The notes beneath the pieces were generated by a model. It searched no databases. It saw only the letters and a program-made list of their open reading frames with translations, and was not told the origin of the DNA. This document shows, one piece after another, positions 1-64,000 of a stretch of 64,000 bases of DNA (position 1 is the first letter of the stretch; every line of letters begins with the position of its first letter). A program made the translations under genes and the position numbers. Origin of the DNA: an uncultured Candidatus Saccharibacteria bacterium (GTDB lineage: Bacteria; Patescibacteriota; Minisyncoccia; Phycocordibacterales; UBA9973); the NCBI GenBank assembly GCA_964426555.1, contig CAYRQJ010000003.1, positions 1,229 to 65,228 on the forward strand, written 5' to 3'.

Positions 1-301
1 ATTTTCTAATTCTTTCTTTTTACTATTTTTTTCATCATTAGTACGAATAAATGACCTGGCCATACCAAAAAACCCATAAAATACTAATACCAAAAGAACA
101 AAAAATACAGTAGTCCGAACAGCTATTGGTCTTGTTTGGCTGTTTTTATAAAGCTGGCGTAAATCCCTTATCATGTGATATAGTATATAATATGTTTAGC
201 ACAAAAGCACGAAAAAGATTACGCGTATTTTTTAGTATTGCAGTAGTTTTAATTATTATCAGTATGGTACTACTTTATGTACCTTCACTTTATCAATAAA
301 T

Positions 302-10194: not shown

Positions 10195-10836
10195 ATGAAA
10201 ATTGGGCAACAAGCAAAATCTGCTGGTAAAATTAAAAAACCAAGCAAAAATAATATTGTAAATTTTACAACATGGATTGGGTCAAACGAATCGTTGATTA
10301 TTCATTCCATTGTATTTGGGTTCTTTTTTTTAATCTCAATACTGGGTGCTGATTTTGATAAAATATTATTAGTATTAACTACACTGGTATCACTGGAAGC
10401 AATATATTTGTCGATTTTTATTCAAATGAGTGTAAACCGCCAAGGAGAACAATTAGAAATAGTCTCTGAAGACATTGAAGAAATTCAAGAAGATGTGGAA
10501 GAAATTCAAAAAGATGTGGAAGGGATTGAAGAAGATATTGATGAAATTCAGGAAGATGTGGAAGAAATTGAAAAAGACATTGATGAAATTCAGGAAGATG
10601 TAGAAGAAATTCAGGAAGATGTAGATGAATTACCAAATACTCCAAACACAAAAAAATCTATTACAAAAGATAGTATCGATTCAAAACAAAACGATTTAAA
10701 TAAAAATATTCTTACACTACTACAAAGTATGGATCAAAAAATTCAAGACTTACAAAAAGAATTAGCTATAAGTAAGTCTAAAGAAGCAAAAACAGATTCT
10801 ATAACAAAAAAAGTAGCAAAGTTAATAAAAAAATAA
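10195..10836 (+). CDS. DUF1003-family membrane protein with C-terminal acidic heptad-repeat (coiled-coil) region
   Basis: 213 aa. 'NFTTWIGSNESLIIHSIVFGFFFLISILG...LVSLEAIYLSIFIQMSVNRQ' matches the DUF1003 two-helix core. It is followed by 8 perfect heptads (EDIEEIQ/EDVEEIQ/KDVEGIE...) and a Lys-rich tail. Confidence 0.55.
   Translation: MKIGQQAKSAGKIKKPSKNNIVNFTTWIGSNESLIIHSIVFGFFFLISILGADFDKILLVLTTLVSLEAIYLSIFIQMSVNRQGEQLEIVSEDIEEIQEDVEEIQKDVEGIEEDIDEIQEDVEEIEKDIDEIQEDVEEIQEDVDELPNTPNTKKSITKDSIDSKQNDLNKNILTLLQSMDQKIQDLQKELAISKSKEAKTDSITKKVAKLIKK
10468..10635 (+). repeat. 8 tandem 21-nt (heptad-encoding) repeats inside the DUF1003 gene
   Basis: Direct read: gaagacattgaagaaattcaa / gaagatgtggaagaaattcaa / aaagatgtggaagggattgaa ... 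In frame with the CDS; a-d positions are I/V, the rest D/E/Q/K. Confidence 0.8.
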
Positions 10837-10848
10837 TCCCCTACGGGA

Positions 10849-11442
10849 TTATTTTTTTATATCAATATTTACTTTACCTTGTCTTAATATTTTAGGTTTA
10901 GACCCAGAATAGTCAACAAGAGTAGAAGGTTCGCCACGGCGTGTACCACCAGCTAAATATGCATCCACAGTATCTTTAAAATACCTGTGTGCTTTATTTT
11001 CACATGTTGCAGGTGGCTGACCTTCGGGGTTAGCACTGGGGGCTAATACTGGCCCAACGGAATTTATGATTTTATATAAATTACGAGATTTTTTGCCGAT
11101 CATACGAAAAGCAATACTACCAATTCCCCTGTGTAAATATTCGTATTTTTTAGAATTACATGGCAATACTATACTTACAGCTCCCGGCCAATATTTATTC
11201 ATAAAATCTTGCTGTTTTTCTGTAATAGAAATTCCAAAAGATTTTATTTGAACAACATCAGTAACTAAAATTATACATGGCTTTTTTGTATCTCTTTGCT
11301 TTATTTTATATAATTTATTTACAGCACGCTTATCTATTGCACGACAAATTATTCCATACATTGTATCTGTAGGAACTATAGCTACCCCACTATTCTTTAG
11401 TGTATCTATAACTTGGTTTACAGTATTACCTTTAAAAAACAT
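10849..11442 (-). CDS. tsaC: L-threonylcarbamoyladenylate synthase (TsaC/YrdC family)
   Basis: 197 aa. 'VAIVPTDTMYGIICRAIDKRAVNKLYKIKQRDTKKPCIIL' is the YrdC/Sua5 signature. Short single-domain form. Confidence 0.75.
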   Translation of the reverse strand: MFFKGNTVNQVIDTLKNSGVAIVPTDTMYGIICRAIDKRAVNKLYKIKQRDTKKPCIILVTDVVQIKSFGISITEKQQDFMNKYWPGAVSIVLPCNSKKYEYLHRGIGSIAFRMIGKKSRNLYKIINSVGPVLAPSANPEGQPPATCENKAHRYFKDTVDAYLAGGTRRGEPSTLVDYSGSKPKILRQGKVNIDIKK

Positions 11443-11443
11443 T

Positions 11444-11824
11444 TTAAATATTATTTATTTTTGCAGCTAAAATAAAATCGTTATTTGATAGCCCACCAAT
11501 AGCATGAGTAGATAATGTAATTTCTACAAATTTATAATCTGTTAAATTAATGTCGGGGTGATGGCCTTCAACTTCAGCAATTACCCCAACTTTATTTACA
11601 AAATCCAATGCATGTTTAAAGTCTGCAAATATAAATTTTTGACTAATACTTTTAGCGTCATATGACAATACCCAATCATGTACGGCATCATTAACCAACA
11701 TCGCTTCGGCTTCTATTTGGTTTAAAGCTGGAAAATCTCCACCTTCGCACGGGATACATTTTTGGTTTATTAAATCTTGATCTTGCATATTTGTATTATA
11801 ACAAAAAAATTGGGAGTTACCCAA
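11444..11824 (-). CDS. pterin-4a-carbinolamine dehydratase (PCD/DCoH)
   Basis: 126 aa. 'AEVEGHHPDINLTDYKFVEITLSTHAIGGLS' contains the PCD [E]-x-H-H-P motif. Confidence 0.7.
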   Translation of the reverse strand: MGNSQFFCYNTNMQDQDLINQKCIPCEGGDFPALNQIEAEAMLVNDAVHDWVLSYDAKSISQKFIFADFKHALDFVNKVGVIAEVEGHHPDINLTDYKFVEITLSTHAIGGLSNNDFILAAKINNI

Positions 11825-11833
11825 TTCTTTGTA

Positions 11834-12541
11834 TTATTGTACTGTAGCTGGAATAGCACTAATTATTTCATTTATTTTATCTCGTGTTGTTTTACCAACA
11901 TAACCAGTTCCACTAATACCATAGTTTTTTTGAAATTTTCGTACAGAAGATAATGTTTTTATTCCAAAATATCCTGTAGGATTTCCATTAAATAAATTTT
12001 GGTCTACAAGAAAATTCTGTAATTTAACTACATCTTCACCACGACTGCCAAATCTTAGATTTGCATAAATCCCATTACCTATTATTTCAGTTGGTAATTG
12101 TTCTTCATTATCAACTATAGTTACCATTTTTGTTACAAATTGAGTTTGTCCCCCTCTTTCTAAATCTGGTTGTGGGCAAGGTGCCATAATACAATAAATT
12201 GTTGGCTGATAAGCATAATTTACATCGTAAATTGTACCGGGTTGTAAACCAGTAACAGTTACTTGTTTTTTACCTTCTGGAGTTTTTAAACATTCATTAT
12301 ATGTAGCACAGCCTTCAATATGACCTTTGGTATAATATTCAAAGTATAAATTATTTACATATTTATATGCTTCAGTTTTGTCTACAAAAACAAAAGTTGC
12401 TGAGTTAGTTGTAATATTAACAACATCAACTGTTGGTTTTTCACGAACCAGAGAAATATCATCAACTATTTCATTTGCCTTGGCTATATTAAAGGCAAAA
12501 ATACTTAGGACTATAAAAAATACTATGTTTATTTTTTTCAT
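11834..12541 (-). CDS. secreted protein with C-terminal peptidoglycan-binding domain (PG_binding_1)
   Basis: Signal peptide 'MKKINIVFFIVLSIFAFNIAKA'. C-terminus 'GSRGEDVVKLQNFLVDQNLFNGNPTGYFGIKTLSSVRKFQKNYGISGTGYVGKTTRDKI' matches the PGBD fold consensus. Confidence 0.6.
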   Translation of the reverse strand: MKKINIVFFIVLSIFAFNIAKANEIVDDISLVREKPTVDVVNITTNSATFVFVDKTEAYKYVNNLYFEYYTKGHIEGCATYNECLKTPEGKKQVTVTGLQPGTIYDVNYAYQPTIYCIMAPCPQPDLERGGQTQFVTKMVTIVDNEEQLPTEIIGNGIYANLRFGSRGEDVVKLQNFLVDQNLFNGNPTGYFGIKTLSSVRKFQKNYGISGTGYVGKTTRDKINEIISAIPATVQ

Positions 12542-12543
12542 AA

Positions 12544-13680
12544 CTATACCTTAAATTCTACCACATCTCCGTCTTTTACAATATAGTCTTTGCCTACTGT
12601 CATTAATTTACCTTTGGCACGAGCGTCACCATAACTACCGGCTTCCAAAAGATCTTTCCAGTATACTACTTCAGCGCGAATGAATTTATCACGAAAATCG
12701 GTATGTATTGCCATACCAGCAACTGGTGCGGTACTTCCTTTCTCAATAGTCCAAGCTCTTGTCTCGGTTTCGCCTGTTGTAAAATAAGTTTCTAGACCAA
12801 GTAATTCATAAGACCCACGGATAAGGTCGGTAATCCCGTCCCCTGATTCTCCTCCAAATTCACTGCGCATCTCTTCCTTCTCAGCGCCATCGAAATCTTT
12901 TAGTTCTTCTTCAATTTTTGCATCGAACAACACAAACCCTGCTCGTTCATTGTAAATTTCGTTTAATAATTCTTTGTAAATTTCTGGAGCTTCAATATTT
13001 AAATTTTTTGCACCAGCACGAGTGTTTAACCCATATAACATTGGTTTAATAGTAATTAACCCTAATTGTTTTATGGCTTTCATTTCAAACTCATCCAAAT
13101 CTGCACGACGTGCAGGTAAACCAATTTCAAGCAAAGCTAGCACTTTTTCAATTGCTGACAACTCAACTAATGCATTTTTGTCTCCGCGACTTGCGTCTTT
13201 AGCAACATTCCCACGACGCTTTGTAACAGTATCAAGATCAGCCAAAGCTAATTCCATATTAATTACAGACATATCACGAATAGGATTAAAATCGGTATAC
13301 ACATGTTGCATTTCCCCACCGCTTAATTCTTTTCCATCTTTACCCAGATTTGATATTGGGAATAATCGTACAAGATGTAAGATTGCATCAACTTCACGAA
13401 TATGAGTTAAAAATTTATTACCCAAGCCTTCGCCCTTGCTGGCGCCTTCTACTAACCCTGCAATATCCACAAATTCAATAATTGCTGGAACAGTTTTTAC
13501 AGACTCTGAAAATATACCCAGTAAATTTAATCTTTCGTCAGGGACAGGAACAATACCTACTGATGGGTCAATAGTACAAAAAGGATAGTTTTCTGCTGGA
13601 ACAGATTTTTTTGTAAGCGCGTTAAACAATGTTGATTTTCCAACATTTGGTAGTCCTACAATTCCGATACTTAATTTCAT
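12544..13680 (-). CDS. ychF: ribosome-binding ATPase YchF (Obg-family GTPase)
   Basis: 378 aa. 'MKLSIGIVGLPNVGKSTLFNALT' P-loop and C-terminal TGS domain 'TGETETRAWTIEKGSTAPVAGMAIHTDFRDKFIRAEVV'. Confidence 0.9.
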   Translation of the reverse strand: MKLSIGIVGLPNVGKSTLFNALTKKSVPAENYPFCTIDPSVGIVPVPDERLNLLGIFSESVKTVPAIIEFVDIAGLVEGASKGEGLGNKFLTHIREVDAILHLVRLFPISNLGKDGKELSGGEMQHVYTDFNPIRDMSVINMELALADLDTVTKRRGNVAKDASRGDKNALVELSAIEKVLALLEIGLPARRADLDEFEMKAIKQLGLITIKPMLYGLNTRAGAKNLNIEAPEIYKELLNEIYNERAGFVLFDAKIEEELKDFDGAEKEEMRSEFGGESGDGITDLIRGSYELLGLETYFTTGETETRAWTIEKGSTAPVAGMAIHTDFRDKFIRAEVVYWKDLLEAGSYGDARAKGKLMTVGKDYIVKDGDVVEFKV

Positions 13681-39047: not shown

Positions 39048-39170
39048 CCCGTTTAGAAGCAGGTCACGATCCAGATGGTCCCGTTAATGCTTTAGTTAAG
39101 TGAATAATGAATTTTATATTTATATATATCCTGTTCTTGTAATCGTGATCGTGGCTTCTAACGGGATAAC
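39045..39170. repeat. copy A of the palindromic intergenic cassette (between divergent serS and dprA)
   Basis: On the plus strand: CATCCCGTTTAGAAGCAGGTCACGATC ... AT-rich core ... GATCGTGGCTTCTAACGGGATaac. The CAT at 39045-47 is the serS start codon on the minus strand. Confidence 0.65.
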
Positions 39171-40740: not shown

Positions 40741-40858
40741 GTCCCGTTAGAAACCGCGATCGCAATAATAAAAAACATAAATATGAAAATACATTTAATC
40801 AACATTAAAAGAATAAATAAACAAGAACGTGATATGATCGCGATCTGTTTCTAACGGG
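40741..40858. repeat. copy B of the palindromic intergenic cassette; outer end runs directly into the topA ATG
   Basis: GTCCCGTTAGAAACCGCGATCGCAATA ... 65 nt AT-rich ... CGTGATATGATCGCGATCTGTTTCTAACGGG followed by ATG (40859). Contains the GCGATCGC and GATCGCGATC palindromes. Confidence 0.7.
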
Positions 40859-60604: not shown

Positions 60605-60616
60605 TTGTCATTTAGT

Positions 60617-60688
60617 GCCTCGTGAGGGGATCGAACCCCCGACCATCTCCTTAAGAGGGAGCTGCTCTACCAGCTGAGCTAACAAGGC
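60617..60688 (-). tRNA. tRNA-Lys (anticodon CTT)
   Basis: Reverse complement: acceptor gccttgt/acgaggc, D-arm tagctcagctggtagagca, anticodon loop cTCTTaa, T-arm ggggg-ttcgatc-ccctc. Confidence 0.7.
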
Positions 60689-60789
60689 AAAACAAAAATT
60701 AAAATTTTGTTAAGTTAGTTTATAATAAATAAACATAAAAATCAATCTGCTATTGAATATTTTCTTAAAATAGTATAAAGTATATCCAT

Positions 60790-60871
60790 GCCGAGGTGGC
60801 GAAATTGGTAGACGCACTGGTCTTAGGAACCAGCTCCGCAAGGAATGGAGGTTCAAGTCCTCTCCTCGGCA
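60790..60871 (+). tRNA. tRNA-Leu (anticodon TAG)
   Basis: Acceptor gccgagg/cctcggc, anticodon stem ctggt/accag with loop cTTAGga, long variable arm, T-arm ggagg-ttcaagt-cctct. Confidence 0.8.
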
Positions 60872-60888
60872 CACGCCCTCACCCAATT

Positions 60889-60974
60889 GCCCGAGTGATG
60901 GAATGGTAGACATAGGGGACTTAAAATCCCCAGGACATAGTCCGTGTGGGTTCGAGTCCCACCTTGGGCACCAA
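60889..60974 (+). tRNA. tRNA-Leu (anticodon TAA), CCA encoded
   Basis: Acceptor gcccgag/cttgggc, anticodon stem gggga/tcccc with loop cTTAAaa, long variable arm, T-arm gtggg-ttcgagt-cccac, 3' ACCA. Confidence 0.8.
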
Positions 60975-61106
60975 GAGAGCACGCAAGGCGTGCGTGTGGA
61001 CGAGAAAACCTTTTCTATATTTATGAGCCCCGTTATGTTCTCGGGGTGAATAAATAGAAAAGGTGTACAGATCCTGTAAGGATCGAGTTCTGGTATTAAA
61101 TAACAA

Positions 61107-61178
61107 GGTCCAGTCGCCAAGTGGTAAGGCAAGAGTCTGCAAAACTCTTATACGGCGGTTCGATTCCGCCCTGGGCCT
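61107..61178 (+). tRNA. tRNA-Cys (anticodon GCA)
   Basis: Acceptor ggtccag/ctgggcc (one G-U pair), anticodon stem agagt/actct with loop cTGCAaa, T-arm ggcgg-ttcgatt-ccgcc. Confidence 0.75.
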
Positions 61179-61193
61179 CACTAAACGACAATA

Positions 61194-61224
61194 TAAAAAA
61201 CCGCTATTAATAGCGGTTTTTTAT
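61194..61224. terminator. bidirectional intrinsic terminator (accgctattaatagcggt)
   Basis: 7-bp stem with A6 and T6 flanks, between tRNA-Cys (+) and the pilin-like genes (-). Confidence 0.55.
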
Positions 61225-61231
61225 ATTTATT

Positions 61232-61480
61232 TTATGAAGCAGATTGTAATGTATTTATAAGTAAGTTTAATATTCCATAAACTCCAAACATTATAAACAA
61301 ACCAATTAATCCCCACATCATATGTTTAGTCCCCTTGTTTCTAGCTTCTTCACTGCTAGCATCCATTATCATTTCAACTACTCCCCAAATAAACACAACC
61401 AGGGCAACTATAAACATTAGTTTAATTAAAGGTTGTACAATATTTGAGACCAATGCTCCGATAATTTTGGAACTATCCAT
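61232..61480 (-). CDS. TrbC/VirB2-like pilin paralog P1 (two-helix small membrane protein)
   Basis: 82 aa. Hydrophobic helix 'LMFIVALVVFIWGVVEMIM', charged loop 'DASSEEARNKGTKH', second helix 'MMWGLIGLFIMFGVYGIL'. Same architecture as P2-P4. Confidence 0.5.
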   Translation of the reverse strand: MDSSKIIGALVSNIVQPLIKLMFIVALVVFIWGVVEMIMDASSEEARNKGTKHMMWGLIGLFIMFGVYGILNLLINTLQSAS

Positions 61481-61979: not shown

Positions 61980-63326
61980 CTATTTTATAATAATCTTTAC
62001 TTCGTTAGTTACATAGACTTTACTAGTTGTAATATCTTTATAGTGATACATTATACAACTTTGTGTCCCGGAGCCTGGTATTGTATAAGTTGGAGAAGTA
62101 TAACCAGTATCAGCAGTTAAGCTTTTATTAGAATTTTTTTCTAAAATATTCGGTCCAATAGTTCCGTCTCCTCCAATTATTTTGCATTGCACAAATAACA
62201 CACCATTATATGGAGTAAATGATTTATTAACATCCCAACCAAATTTACCTGTTACTGATCCAGCTTTTTCGCTAATCTTACTAAATGTTAAATTAGCAGT
62301 ATAAGGATTTGGAGTAATAGCATCTTTTGTTATTAAAGGAAAATTACCACTTGTTGTACCAGAACTTGTATTATTATTTGAAGCTGGCGCTTGACTACCA
62401 GCAGTAAGTAAGCTTTTTGAAGTATAACCAAGAAATGTTTTATCAGATTTAAAGATATTCCAAAAACCACTGGTTTCCCCACTAACATTTAAAACAGTTC
62501 CATAAGCATTTTTAGTAATAATATTGGCTGATGAAGCAGTGCTTGGGTCAGATCTTAGGTTTGCACCATTTAGAGCATTTACATAGTATTGTTTCAAAGT
62601 TCCAGCTACAGGAGAATTATCCGCAGGAGGAGTTACTACTGGGTCAGTTTTAACTGAATCACCCTGAGAATTTGTTGGTTCTTTTGCTACATCTTTTTGA
62701 GTATTAGGGTCTACTACTGTTCCAGTATTTGTTCCGTTGGTAGTTGTATTACCAGTACCCACCCCGGTTGTTGTATTATTATTTAAAACTGCACCTGCTG
62801 TTGCTGTTCCGTTAGAATTATTTACATTATTAACTACCCCAGCATTGGAGCCTGAATTAACTAGATTATTATTGTTGGTAATACTGGAATTACTAACCCC
62901 ACTGTCTTTTGAAATATTTGAAACAGTATCAATAATTACATTTGAAATTAACTGTGCCCCAAGAATTATTGCGGCCCCAATCAAAGTCCAAGTTAAAGTT
63001 TTATGAGCTGTTTCGATTGCTTCTGGTTTACCACGAGCAACAACATATAAGAATCCAGAATATATAACCATTACAATAATAACTGGTATAGCAAACTCAA
63101 TCACAACTTTTAAAATTTTTGCAATTAAATCTTTGATTGTAGTAGTACAACCCGTACCACCTTTTTTGTCACAAATTGGATTATCAATTGCTACCTTTAA
63201 TTCAAAATTATCCGCCGGAGTAGCAGTTTTAGCATCTTGTGCAATTGCTAATTTAGGAAGCATTGCAAAGTTTCCAGAAAATACAACTATTAAAAACAAT
63301 AAAGATGTTAGAAAATTTTTTTTCAT
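61980..63326 (-). CDS. giant pilin-like paralog P3: TrbC/VirB2-like N-terminal module + N/T/G/S low-complexity linker + SH3b-like domain + unknown C-terminal domain
   Basis: 448 aa. Signal peptide, helix 'ILKVVIEFAIPVIIVMVIYSGFLYVVARG', loop 'KPEAIETAHKT', helix 'LTWTLIGAAIILGAQLIS'. A ~120-aa linker follows ('NNNNLVNSGSNAGVVNNVNNSNGTATAGAVLNNNTTTGVGTGNTTTNGTNTGT'), then 'YYVNALNGANLRSDPSTASSANIITKNAYGTVLNVSGETSGFWNIFKSDKTFLGYTSKSLL' (SH3_3-like). Start codon fused to the cassette C arm. Confidence 0.5.
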   Translation of the reverse strand: MKKNFLTSLLFLIVVFSGNFAMLPKLAIAQDAKTATPADNFELKVAIDNPICDKKGGTGCTTTIKDLIAKILKVVIEFAIPVIIVMVIYSGFLYVVARGKPEAIETAHKTLTWTLIGAAIILGAQLISNVIIDTVSNISKDSGVSNSSITNNNNLVNSGSNAGVVNNVNNSNGTATAGAVLNNNTTTGVGTGNTTTNGTNTGTVVDPNTQKDVAKEPTNSQGDSVKTDPVVTPPADNSPVAGTLKQYYVNALNGANLRSDPSTASSANIITKNAYGTVLNVSGETSGFWNIFKSDKTFLGYTSKSLLTAGSQAPASNNNTSSGTTSGNFPLITKDAITPNPYTANLTFSKISEKAGSVTGKFGWDVNKSFTPYNGVLFVQCKIIGGDGTIGPNILEKNSNKSLTADTGYTSPTYTIPGSGTQSCIMYHYKDITTSKVYVTNEVKIIIK

Positions 63327-63447
63327 CCCGTTAGAAGCAGATCGCGATCAAATCACGATTTTGCTTTATTATACTTATAATTTTACTTTTATTTAAATTC
63401 ATATATTTATTATCTTATCATATTGCGATCGCGGCTTCTAACGGGAC
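63324..63447. repeat. copy C of the palindromic intergenic cassette, in opposite orientation to copy B; outer end abuts the P3 start codon
   Basis: CATCCCGTTAGAAGCAGATCGCGATCAAATCACG ... AT-rich ... ATTGCGATCGCGGCTTCTAACGGGAC. The reverse complement aligns end-to-end with copy B. Confidence 0.65.
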
Positions 63448-63998: not shown

Positions 63999-64000
63999 AC

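Follow-up and report, generated by a model that had tools for sequence, protein, structure and literature searches.

A modular VirB2-like pilin with a predicted SH3b domain and a recombining tip in a conserved pilin array of Patescibacteria

Results

A pilin module, a spacer, an SH3b domain and an Ig-like domain are encoded in one open reading frame

We analyzed a 64,000-nucleotide stretch (hereafter the window) of contig CAYRQJ010000003.1 from an uncultured Candidatus Saccharibacteria bacterium (GenBank assembly GCA_964426555.1), which contains on its reverse strand a complete gene for a 448-amino acid (aa) protein that we call the modular pilin (Table 1). From its N- to its C-terminus, this protein consists of a Sec-type signal peptide, a VirB2-like two-helix pilin module, a spacer, a bacterial SH3 (SH3b) domain, a short spacer and an immunoglobulin (Ig)-like β-sandwich with two cysteines. 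The original prediction, made from the sequence alone, had described a pilin-like module followed by a low-complexity linker, an SH3b-like domain and an unknown two-Cys domain, and this order was confirmed by Pfam, by orthologues and by structure models. It had also judged the combination to fall outside standard annotation, in agreement with our finding that the sole source name in the protein's cluster is "hypothetical protein" and that the literature we searched held no paper joining Patescibacteria, pilin and SH3. While the architecture and its non-standard character stood, the original prediction had missed several further features that we describe below: an array of pilin genes, interchangeable heads among relatives, the Ig-like nature of the terminal module and a cassette.

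Table 1. Coordinates of the modular pilin gene, its parts and the neighboring features in the window
Feature	Position	Strand	Details
Modular pilin gene, complete	61980..63326	-	448 aa; ATG start; stop codon 61980-61982
Sec-type signal peptide	63240..63326	-	aa 1-29; hydrophobic window 4-29; cleavage predicted after A-I-A, before Q30
Short N-terminal segment, predicted extracytoplasmic	63147..63239	-	aa 30-60; contains Cys52 and Cys60
VirB2-like pilin module	62907..63146	-	aa 61-140; two hydrophobic helices with basic loop ARGKPEAIETAHK between them
Disordered spacer, Asn/Thr/Gly/Ser/Val-rich	62595..62906	-	aa 141-244 (~104 aa); length variable among orthologues
SH3b domain, SH3_3-type	62397..62594	-	aa 245-310; Pfam, reciprocal profile search, AlphaFold2, Foldseek
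Hypervariable distal cassette	61983..62396	-	Ser/Asn/Thr spacer, aa 311-340 (30 aa), and domain A, aa 341-448 (~108 aa)
Inverted-repeat element in 5' leader/promoter region of modular pilin gene	63327..63445	-	~115 bp; ends exactly at the ATG
Upstream pilin-like protein, ~187-192 aa	63453..64000	-	Weak PF18895 match (E 2.2e-4); 181-aa open reading frame clipped by the window end
Downstream VirB2-like pilin, 133 aa	61489..61890	-	C-terminal Cys pair; PF18895 31.2 bits
Minimal VirB2-like pilin, 82 aa, last array member	61232..61480	-	PF18895 37.3 bits; syntenic 80-82-aa orthologues
Perfect palindrome, 19+19 nt, with T-runs	61190..61227		Between tRNA-Cys and the last pilin gene

The same fusion was present in four divergent orthologues, P0002 (66% identity), P0003 (59%), P0004 (42%) and P0005 (44%), each of which is encoded by one uninterrupted open reading frame (ORF) and has the same architecture, with a linker that differs in length from that of the window protein and, in P0005, with the terminal domain in two copies. 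Three metagenomic copies (L023, L024 and L025, from one NCBI assembly and two contigs derived from SRA) contain a near-identical full-length ORF, and at least one of these may be identical to that of the window. A frameshift joining two genes within the low-complexity run had been named beforehand as a possible origin of the ORF; its continuity in P0002-P0005 and in L023, L024 and L025 shows that the region is not two genes. Contig L024 (logan SRR12762275_777468) is itself a perfect inverted duplication, in which P3-P2-P1 is followed by P1-P2-P3 on the opposite strand, and this arrangement is most likely an assembly artefact. Two antisense ORFs of 87-89 aa, at 62737-63006 (+) and 63133-63396 (+), are low-complexity mirror images of the pilin coding strand and are unsupported as genes.

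The N-terminal region is a Sec signal peptide followed by a VirB2-like helix hairpin

The N-terminus of the modular pilin, MKKNFLTSLLFLIVVFSGNFAMLPKLAIAQD, has the form of a Sec-type signal with an AxA site, and direct reading found no G/FTLxE-type prepilin motif in it. Residues A29 and Q30 are invariant across an alignment of five orthologues, and we infer from the sequence that the signal peptide is cleaved after Ala29. As this alignment begins at Met1, we take Met1, and not Met22, to be the true start of the protein. In the NCBI gene call for the same sequence (P0001, 427 aa), Met22 is taken as the start, and 63263-63326 (-), most of the signal peptide, is left out. We also observed that the signal-peptide region is a mosaic among strains: the versions MKKNFLTSLLFLIVVFSGNFAMLP and MKKFIITFLFALVIFSGNFITVP occur in strains with an identical tip and pilin module (L024, L025), and the nonsynonymous divergence (dN) of this region is 0.2-0.3, compared to 0.01 in the neighboring pilin module. 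In the short segment that follows the signal peptide, the Cys52/Cys60 pair occurs in the closest orthologues only, and the paralogues have longer, Cys-rich versions of the segment.

The two-helix pilin-like module that had been proposed near the N-terminus was recovered by profile search and by modeling. Residues 61-131 match the Pfam family T4SS_pilin (PF18895; T4SS, type IV secretion system) at 28.4 bits, above the gathering score of 26.6, and paralogues and orthologues score 31-39 bits. The structure model contains two long predicted helices in the module (residues 64-99 and 102-139), and hydropathy windows lie at residues 4-29, 66-100 and 110-136. On the basis of the VirB2/TraA paradigm and the positive-inside rule, the basic loop between the helices is predicted to lie inside the cell and both termini outside. 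Since the signal peptide of the protein precedes a helix hairpin whose loop is basic, the entire C-terminal extension would be located outside the cytoplasmic membrane, which makes a displayed, ligand-binding head a reasonable proposal. We found no LPXTG sorting signal in the sequence of the modular pilin, which ends in ...TNEVKIIIK.

A disordered spacer connects the pilin module to an SH3b domain

The spacer that follows the pilin module is dominated by five residues (N 20%, T 17%, V 13%, G 12%, S 10%) and is predicted to be disordered, with a predicted local distance difference test score (pLDDT) below 30 in the AlphaFold2 (AF2) model. The Asn/Thr/Gly/Ser-rich composition of this linker had been recognized in the original prediction and a disorder check had been proposed there, which the low pLDDT answers in favor of disorder, but the length given then, ~120 aa, is too long by comparison with the ~104 aa that we find. 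Eight N-x-S/T sequons are present at residues 137-197 of the modular pilin, and the spacer is possibly glycosylated. Neither a tandem DNA repeat nor slippage was found when we looked for them in the spacer.

Downstream of the spacer, the Pfam family SH3_3 (PF08239) was matched by all five orthologues when these were scanned separately, with a best E-value of 4e-7. A word-index search with the C-terminal 208 aa missed even the protein's own cluster, and we replaced it by an exhaustive profile search, without a word index, of 1.84 billion representative proteins (E ≤ 1e-3). This search returned 37 matches, and 33 of the 34 matches from outside the family carry SH3_3, often in several copies and often fused to domains that hydrolyze or bind the wall (NlpC/P60, Amidase_3, GH25, SpoIID, PG_binding_1, GW and SLH). 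A profile search against PDB sequences gave no match at E ≤ 10. When AF2 was given an alignment of orthologues and SH3 fragments, residues 241-310 were modeled at a pLDDT of 92-98. In Foldseek comparisons, the modeled segment aligned to the solved clostridial SH3b structure 2krs (template modeling (TM) score 0.70, root-mean-square deviation 2.5 Å, 26% identity), to a second clostridial SH3b structure, 2kt8 (TM-score 0.71), and to phage SH3 and endolysin binding domains (TM-score 0.54-0.73). Together, the matches in all five orthologues, the reciprocal search and the resemblance of the modeled fold to 2krs and 2kt8 indicate that the SH3b domain is genuine, as the pattern originally noticed in this segment had suggested.

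The SH3b-bearing version of the protein is limited to five clusters at 90% identity. A scan of metagenomes with patterns from the SH3b region gave no confirmed locus, and a scan with pilin patterns gave only 4 loci.

The distal Ig-like domain has been replaced between closely related strains

The last ~150 aa of the protein had been described as a region of unassigned function with two Cys. Both cysteines are indeed there (Cys381 and Cys424), while the region itself is really a 30-aa spacer and a β-sandwich of ~108 aa, which we refer to as domain A. This domain was modeled at a pLDDT of 64-92, and the two cysteines, which lie within strands of the model and are invariant in all orthologues, would fit both an Ig-type disulfide and a location outside the cytoplasm. 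Foldseek matches to the modeled domain are of a generic Ig/fibronectin type III-like kind only (E ~1e-3 to 1e-2) and include RhoGDI, the arrestin N-lobe, accessory domains of GH2/GH3 enzymes, SoxY, CARDB, FlaF and the adhesin region of SgrA. A Pfam scan of domain A matched no family. An iterated hidden Markov model of domain A found one or two copies of it in the paralogous pilin fusions P0007-P0013, which additionally carry a second two-Cys domain type, "B".

Conservation falls steeply along the protein, with amino acid identities to P0002 and P0003 of 96-97% in the pilin module, 83-87% in the SH3b domain and 24-31% in the terminal domain. At the DNA level, the window and the orthologous locus L001 are 92-97% identical over the neighboring genes and over most of the gene, including the pilin module. 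Over ~62400-61980, identity is about 45-55%, and it is 95% again right after the stop codon. The same sharp-edged drop at the tip was observed in comparison to L016; for L001 and L016 taken together, the cassette is 42-61% identical and its flanks 84-99%.

We compared the window with L001 by the Nei-Gojobori method, estimating dN and synonymous divergence (dS) separately for each part of the gene (pilin module: dN = 0.012, dS = 0.24, dN/dS = 0.05; SH3b: dN = 0.125, dS = 0.56; tip: dN = 0.80, dS = 1.37) and for the neighboring genes (dN = 0.01-0.02, dS = 0.20-0.31). As dS in the tip is raised ~5-fold over the flank value, the sequences point to recombinational replacement of the tip by a long-diverged allele and not to point diversification in situ. 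We conclude from these alignments that the tip domain is replaced by recombination between otherwise near-identical strains. Three tip alleles were found in three closely related lineages, each of them from at least 2 samples. We found no silent copies of the tip or the SH3b region elsewhere in the 64-kb window, and the repeats of the giant pilin of the array (described below), tested as donors of the tip cassette, had no significant similarity to it.

The pilin module occurs with different heads, or without one, among relatives

A search with the pilin module alone recovered proteins of 127-136 aa at 59-67% identity. In L005, which has a perfectly syntenic array, the orthologous slot is occupied by a 133-aa pilin that ends directly after the module. 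We surveyed the heads at 13 species-representative loci, reading the L006 relative (595 aa) separately from the paralogue that had been picked first, and found bare pilins (125-148 aa) at 8 loci and extended ones at 4 (321, 439, 448 and 667 aa). The heads of the extended pilins are A and/or B domains, and none has an SH3b domain. The 595-aa relative in L006 (positions 10805-12592; Ca. Nomurabacteria RIFCSPLOWO2_01_FULL_33_17) shares this pilin module and also has a (PPVT)n linker, a "B"-type two-Cys domain and a further C-terminal domain of ~250 aa, which is another type of head. A Pfam scan of these other heads matched no family. The C-terminal head is thus an add-on to the pilin module.

The modular pilin is the third gene of a conserved five-gene pilin array

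All relatives of the modular pilin were found in metagenome-assembled genomes of Patescibacteria, labeled Ca. Saccharibacteria or Ca. Nomurabacteria, and in this phylum the gene occupies the third position in a conserved array of five pilin genes. The order is gyrA, a methyltransferase, SBP_bac_1, a giant pilin, a pilin-like protein of ~185-192 aa, the modular pilin, a pilin of 133-148 aa and a pilin of 80-82 aa, the last of which is followed by tRNAs, rbfA and infB; it is syntenic in L001, L005, L009, L016, L018 and L023. The last four members of the array lie inside the window and the giant pilin lies just past position 64000, and three neighbors of the modular pilin match PF18895 in a Pfam scan. 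Orthologues of the upstream pilin-like protein, 185-192 aa in length, occupy the same position in all six of these syntenic loci. The 133-aa downstream pilin is identical over its first 101 residues to a partial orthologue at the end of L001 and is syntenic in L005, L016, L018 and L023.

The giant T4SS_pilin protein has 781-811 aa and many two-Cys β domains (L023, 5486-8441; L001, 7044-9999), and its start overlaps the end of SBP_bac_1 by ~26 nt, which suggests that the solute-binding protein and the pilin array are co-transcribed. At the other end of the array, the palindrome is likely a bidirectional terminator that closes it. Four tRNA genes lie at 60615-61179, between the array and rbfA/infB (Lys-CTT on the reverse strand; Leu-TAG, Leu-TAA and Cys-GCA on the forward strand). 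The window as a whole is a housekeeping segment of the chromosome (GC ~32%), with genes for LepA, MurJ, LeuRS, penicillin-binding proteins, Mur ligases, TopA, RelA/SpoT, ClpB, alanine racemase, IF-2 and a DUF5671 protein.

An inverted-repeat element forms the leader of the modular pilin gene

The element directly upstream of the modular pilin gene has terminal inverted repeats of ~20 bp (CCCGTTAGAAGCCGCGATCGC ... GATCGCGATCTGCTTCTAACGGG) and an AT-rich center with a σ70-like TTTAAA-18-TATAAT. Including this copy at 63327-63445 (-), the window contains three, the others being located at ~39050-39165 (-) and 40743-40858 (+), compared to 0.02 occurrences of the motif expected by chance. Each copy stops exactly at a start codon, namely those of the pilin-SH3b gene, serS and topA. 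The copy at 63327-63445 is missing from the orthologous loci L001, L002 and L016 (L001 and L016 being 85-95% identical) and is present in L023-L025. An Rfam search with the element matched no family. It may be a mobile promoter or leader cassette, or an element resembling a miniature inverted-repeat transposable element.

Discussion

A possible adhesin module within a pilin array

The source organism is an ultrasmall, probably host-dependent member of the Patescibacteria. With moderate confidence, we lean towards the reading that the protein is a modular VirB2-type pilin with a wall-binding adhesin head, the module of which is polymerized into a T4SS pilus. On this reading, the protein would be exported by Sec and its helix hairpin held in the membrane, with a cytoplasmic basic loop and with both termini outside. 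The pilin module would then be co-polymerized with other pilins of the array by the T4SS of the organism or else be kept as a membrane stalk, and in either case the long spacer would carry the head across the wall. The conserved SH3b domain is predicted to bind a conserved cell-wall polymer, most likely the peptidoglycan of a partner or host cell, and the hypervariable Ig-like tip would provide strain-specific surface recognition or evasion of something that targets the tip. In this way, the modular pilin would supply the pilin array with its adhesin module. In F- and T-pili, the termini of the pilin face the exterior of the pilus, and short peptides fused to the C-terminus of F-pilin are displayed on pili. 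A location of the modular pilin at the pilus tip is proposed by analogy. We favor polymerization because the pilin module is under extreme constraint, because bare orthologues exist and because the array is like a set of a major and several minor pilins.

Several observations weigh against this interpretation. A VirB2-type helical polymer in which each subunit bears an extension of 300 aa is, to our knowledge, without precedent. The array is flanked by a solute-binding protein gene and by tRNA/rbfA/infB housekeeping genes, and we found no VirB4, VirB6, VirB3/PrgI or VirD4 among the 20 large ORFs of the window that were scanned, and in relatives the 10 kb preceding the array likewise contained no T4SS core genes. 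Arrays of the Candidate Phyla Radiation (CPR) hold 2-11 VirB2-like pilins and lie away from virB4 in ~40% of assemblies (PMC12102498). The name of the family PF18895 is a prediction, and for its proteins a pilus is named only as a possibility, none having been demonstrated for the family (PMC12857230). As regards the head, the match of the window protein itself to SH3_3 (E = 8.6e-5, 23.1-24.4 bits) is below the gathering score of 27. A first full-length AF2 model, made without SH3 fragments, had a mean pLDDT of 43 and placed strands at the same SH3 positions but with low confidence, and the later, high-confidence model is biased toward the SH3 fold because its alignment was enriched with SH3 fragments selected by the profile. 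Finally, the specificity of the SH3b domain for its ligand is not readable from sequence, and the ligand could be the organism's own wall, since the organism makes peptidoglycan (penicillin-binding proteins, Mur ligases, MurJ and alanine racemase).

Alternative explanations

A possible but rather doubtful alternative is that the protein is no filament subunit but is anchored in the membrane as a surface protein, with the VirB2-like hairpin as a two-helix anchor and the spacer as a wall-spanning stalk. Equally doubtful is the part of this proposal in which the SH3b domain fixes the stalk to the cell's own peptidoglycan and the Ig-like tip is an epitope diversified under pressure from phages, predators or neighbors. 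An anchor would fit an array that has no T4SS core genes nearby, neither within the window nor, in relatives, within 10 kb upstream, a family for which a pilus is only a possibility (PMC12857230), and an organism that synthesizes peptidoglycan itself. In addition, the 104-aa spacer, fully extended, could reach ~30 nm or more, and the giant array member (781-811 aa) also has long multi-domain ectodomains that would be awkward in a VirB2-type polymer. However, the constraint on the pilin module (96-97% aa identity, dN/dS of 0.05) is far beyond what a generic anchor would need, and the module is kept at 59-67% identity in bare orthologues of 127-136 aa, which have nothing to anchor. The conserved five-gene array of divergent paralogues also resembles sets of major and minor pilins, and a cultivated relative has such arrays inside its T4SS cluster, where they are essential (PMC10633639).

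We give far less weight to two further explanations. It is very improbable that the head serves to target a secreted toxin or wall-degrading enzyme (an endolysin or NlpC/P60-like protein), or that the tip is diversified by a diversity-generating retroelement (DGR), even though SH3_3 domains most often accompany cell-wall hydrolases and DGRs are common in CPR bacteria. The protein has no catalytic domain, its only other folded domain being the ~108-aa Ig-like sandwich with generic fold matches. DGR diversification was rejected on the pattern of divergence, which includes indels, covers the whole domain of ~420 bp and has saturated synonymous change, and so is not adenine-specific in a short variable region; nor did we find, within the window, a second copy of the tip region that could be a template repeat. 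To the idea that a small pilin gene and an SH3b gene were fused when a frameshift in the low-complexity run was introduced by sequencing or assembly, or that the SH3-like match arose by chance, we give almost no credence. The biased composition of the linker, the sub-threshold SH3_3 score of the single sequence and the different 5' end of the NCBI call (427 aa) would be in keeping with such an artefact, but at least 8 independent assemblies keep the ORF continuous with linkers of differing length and sequence, the linker DNA has no tandem repeat, and the SH3b domain is backed by all orthologues, by the reciprocal exhaustive search and by its fold. The continuous ORFs across assemblies and the evidence for the SH3b domain refute a two-gene or frameshift artefact.

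Implications

Returning to the reading of the protein as a polymerized pilin with an adhesin head, we tentatively suggest an extension of it that is open to considerable doubt: VirB2-like pilins of the CPR could be a modular display platform, in which one slot of the array takes interchangeable heads (none, A and/or B, or SH3b plus A) and the outermost domain is exchanged between strains by recombination. The SH3b version would then be the missing adhesin of the T4SS pilus, docking the epibiont on the wall of its host, and the tip cassette would set the range of host strains in the way that receptor-binding proteins do for phages.

T4SS-linked arrays of VirB2-like pilins are essential for epibiotic growth of the sole genetically tractable Patescibacterium (PMC10633639), and the modular pilin is a candidate for the missing attachment protein of the CPR secretion pilus. 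It is the sole family member found here whose head has a domain of known ligand class (cell-wall binding), and this predicted wall-binding head makes the question of the adhesin directly testable by experiment. Furthermore, the sharply bounded, replaced tip is a population-genomic marker whose correlation with the identity of the host could be sought in metagenomes.

Comparison with known systems

Outside the CPR, a parallel in design is provided by the modular type IV pilins of Streptococcus sanguinis, in which PilB carries a vWA module and PilC a lectin module (PMC8179133, PMC9934059). By analogy, the shared design would be a pilin module with a ligand-binding module attached C-terminally, in one of several pilins of a monoderm. 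The superfamilies are nevertheless unrelated. Lacking a class III signal peptide, a prepilin-peptidase motif and an N-terminal α1 helix with Glu5, the protein described here lies outside the type IV pilin superfamily, and it has instead a VirB2-type hairpin with a Sec signal. The SH3b domains of endolysins, NlpC/P60 proteins and autolysins (PF08239) match that of the modular pilin in fold and sequence profile, whereas here there is no catalytic domain and the SH3b domain is joined to a pilin module by a long disordered spacer. In its proposed role, contact of a T4SS with its target cell, the modular pilin would resemble VirB5, the tip protein of diderms, and PrgB, the surface adhesin of Gram-positive conjugation. 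It has no sequence or domain similarity to either and no LPXTG, and the adhesin would lie within the pilin polypeptide itself. A survey of CPR T4SS detected no PrgB-like adhesins, and extended pilins are unmentioned in it (PMC12102498).

Like VirB2, TrbC and TraA (PF04956), the modular pilin has a signal peptide and then two hydrophobic helices with a short charged loop. The similarity to this family is weak, with TrbC scores of 18.6 bits for the modular pilin, below the PF04956 threshold, and 22-27 bits for the paralogues. In comparison to these pilins, the modular pilin is ~4-fold larger when mature, has no adjacent T4SS genes, and has no sign of cyclization or of their typical short C-terminus.

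The nearest relatives are the VirB2-like pilin arrays described in CPR bacteria (PMC10633639, PMC12102498, PMC12857230), with which the array reported here shares the PF18895 module, the phylum and the tandem arrangement of divergent paralogues, 5 in this case. In Southlakia epibionticum ML1, a cultivated Saccharibacterium, such arrays lie within the T4SS cluster and are essential (PMC10633639). Unlike the T4SS-linked CPR arrays, the one reported here is not beside virB4 or other T4SS core genes. CPR pilins as described are small, whereas the modular pilin has 308 aa beyond its module (SH3b and Ig-like domains) and the array includes a giant of ~790 aa; replacement of a tip cassette at the strain level was not described in the CPR pilin literature that we searched. 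We conclude that the VirB2-like pilin arrays of the CPR are a known system, to which the SH3b and Ig-like extension of a pilin and its recombining tip are new.

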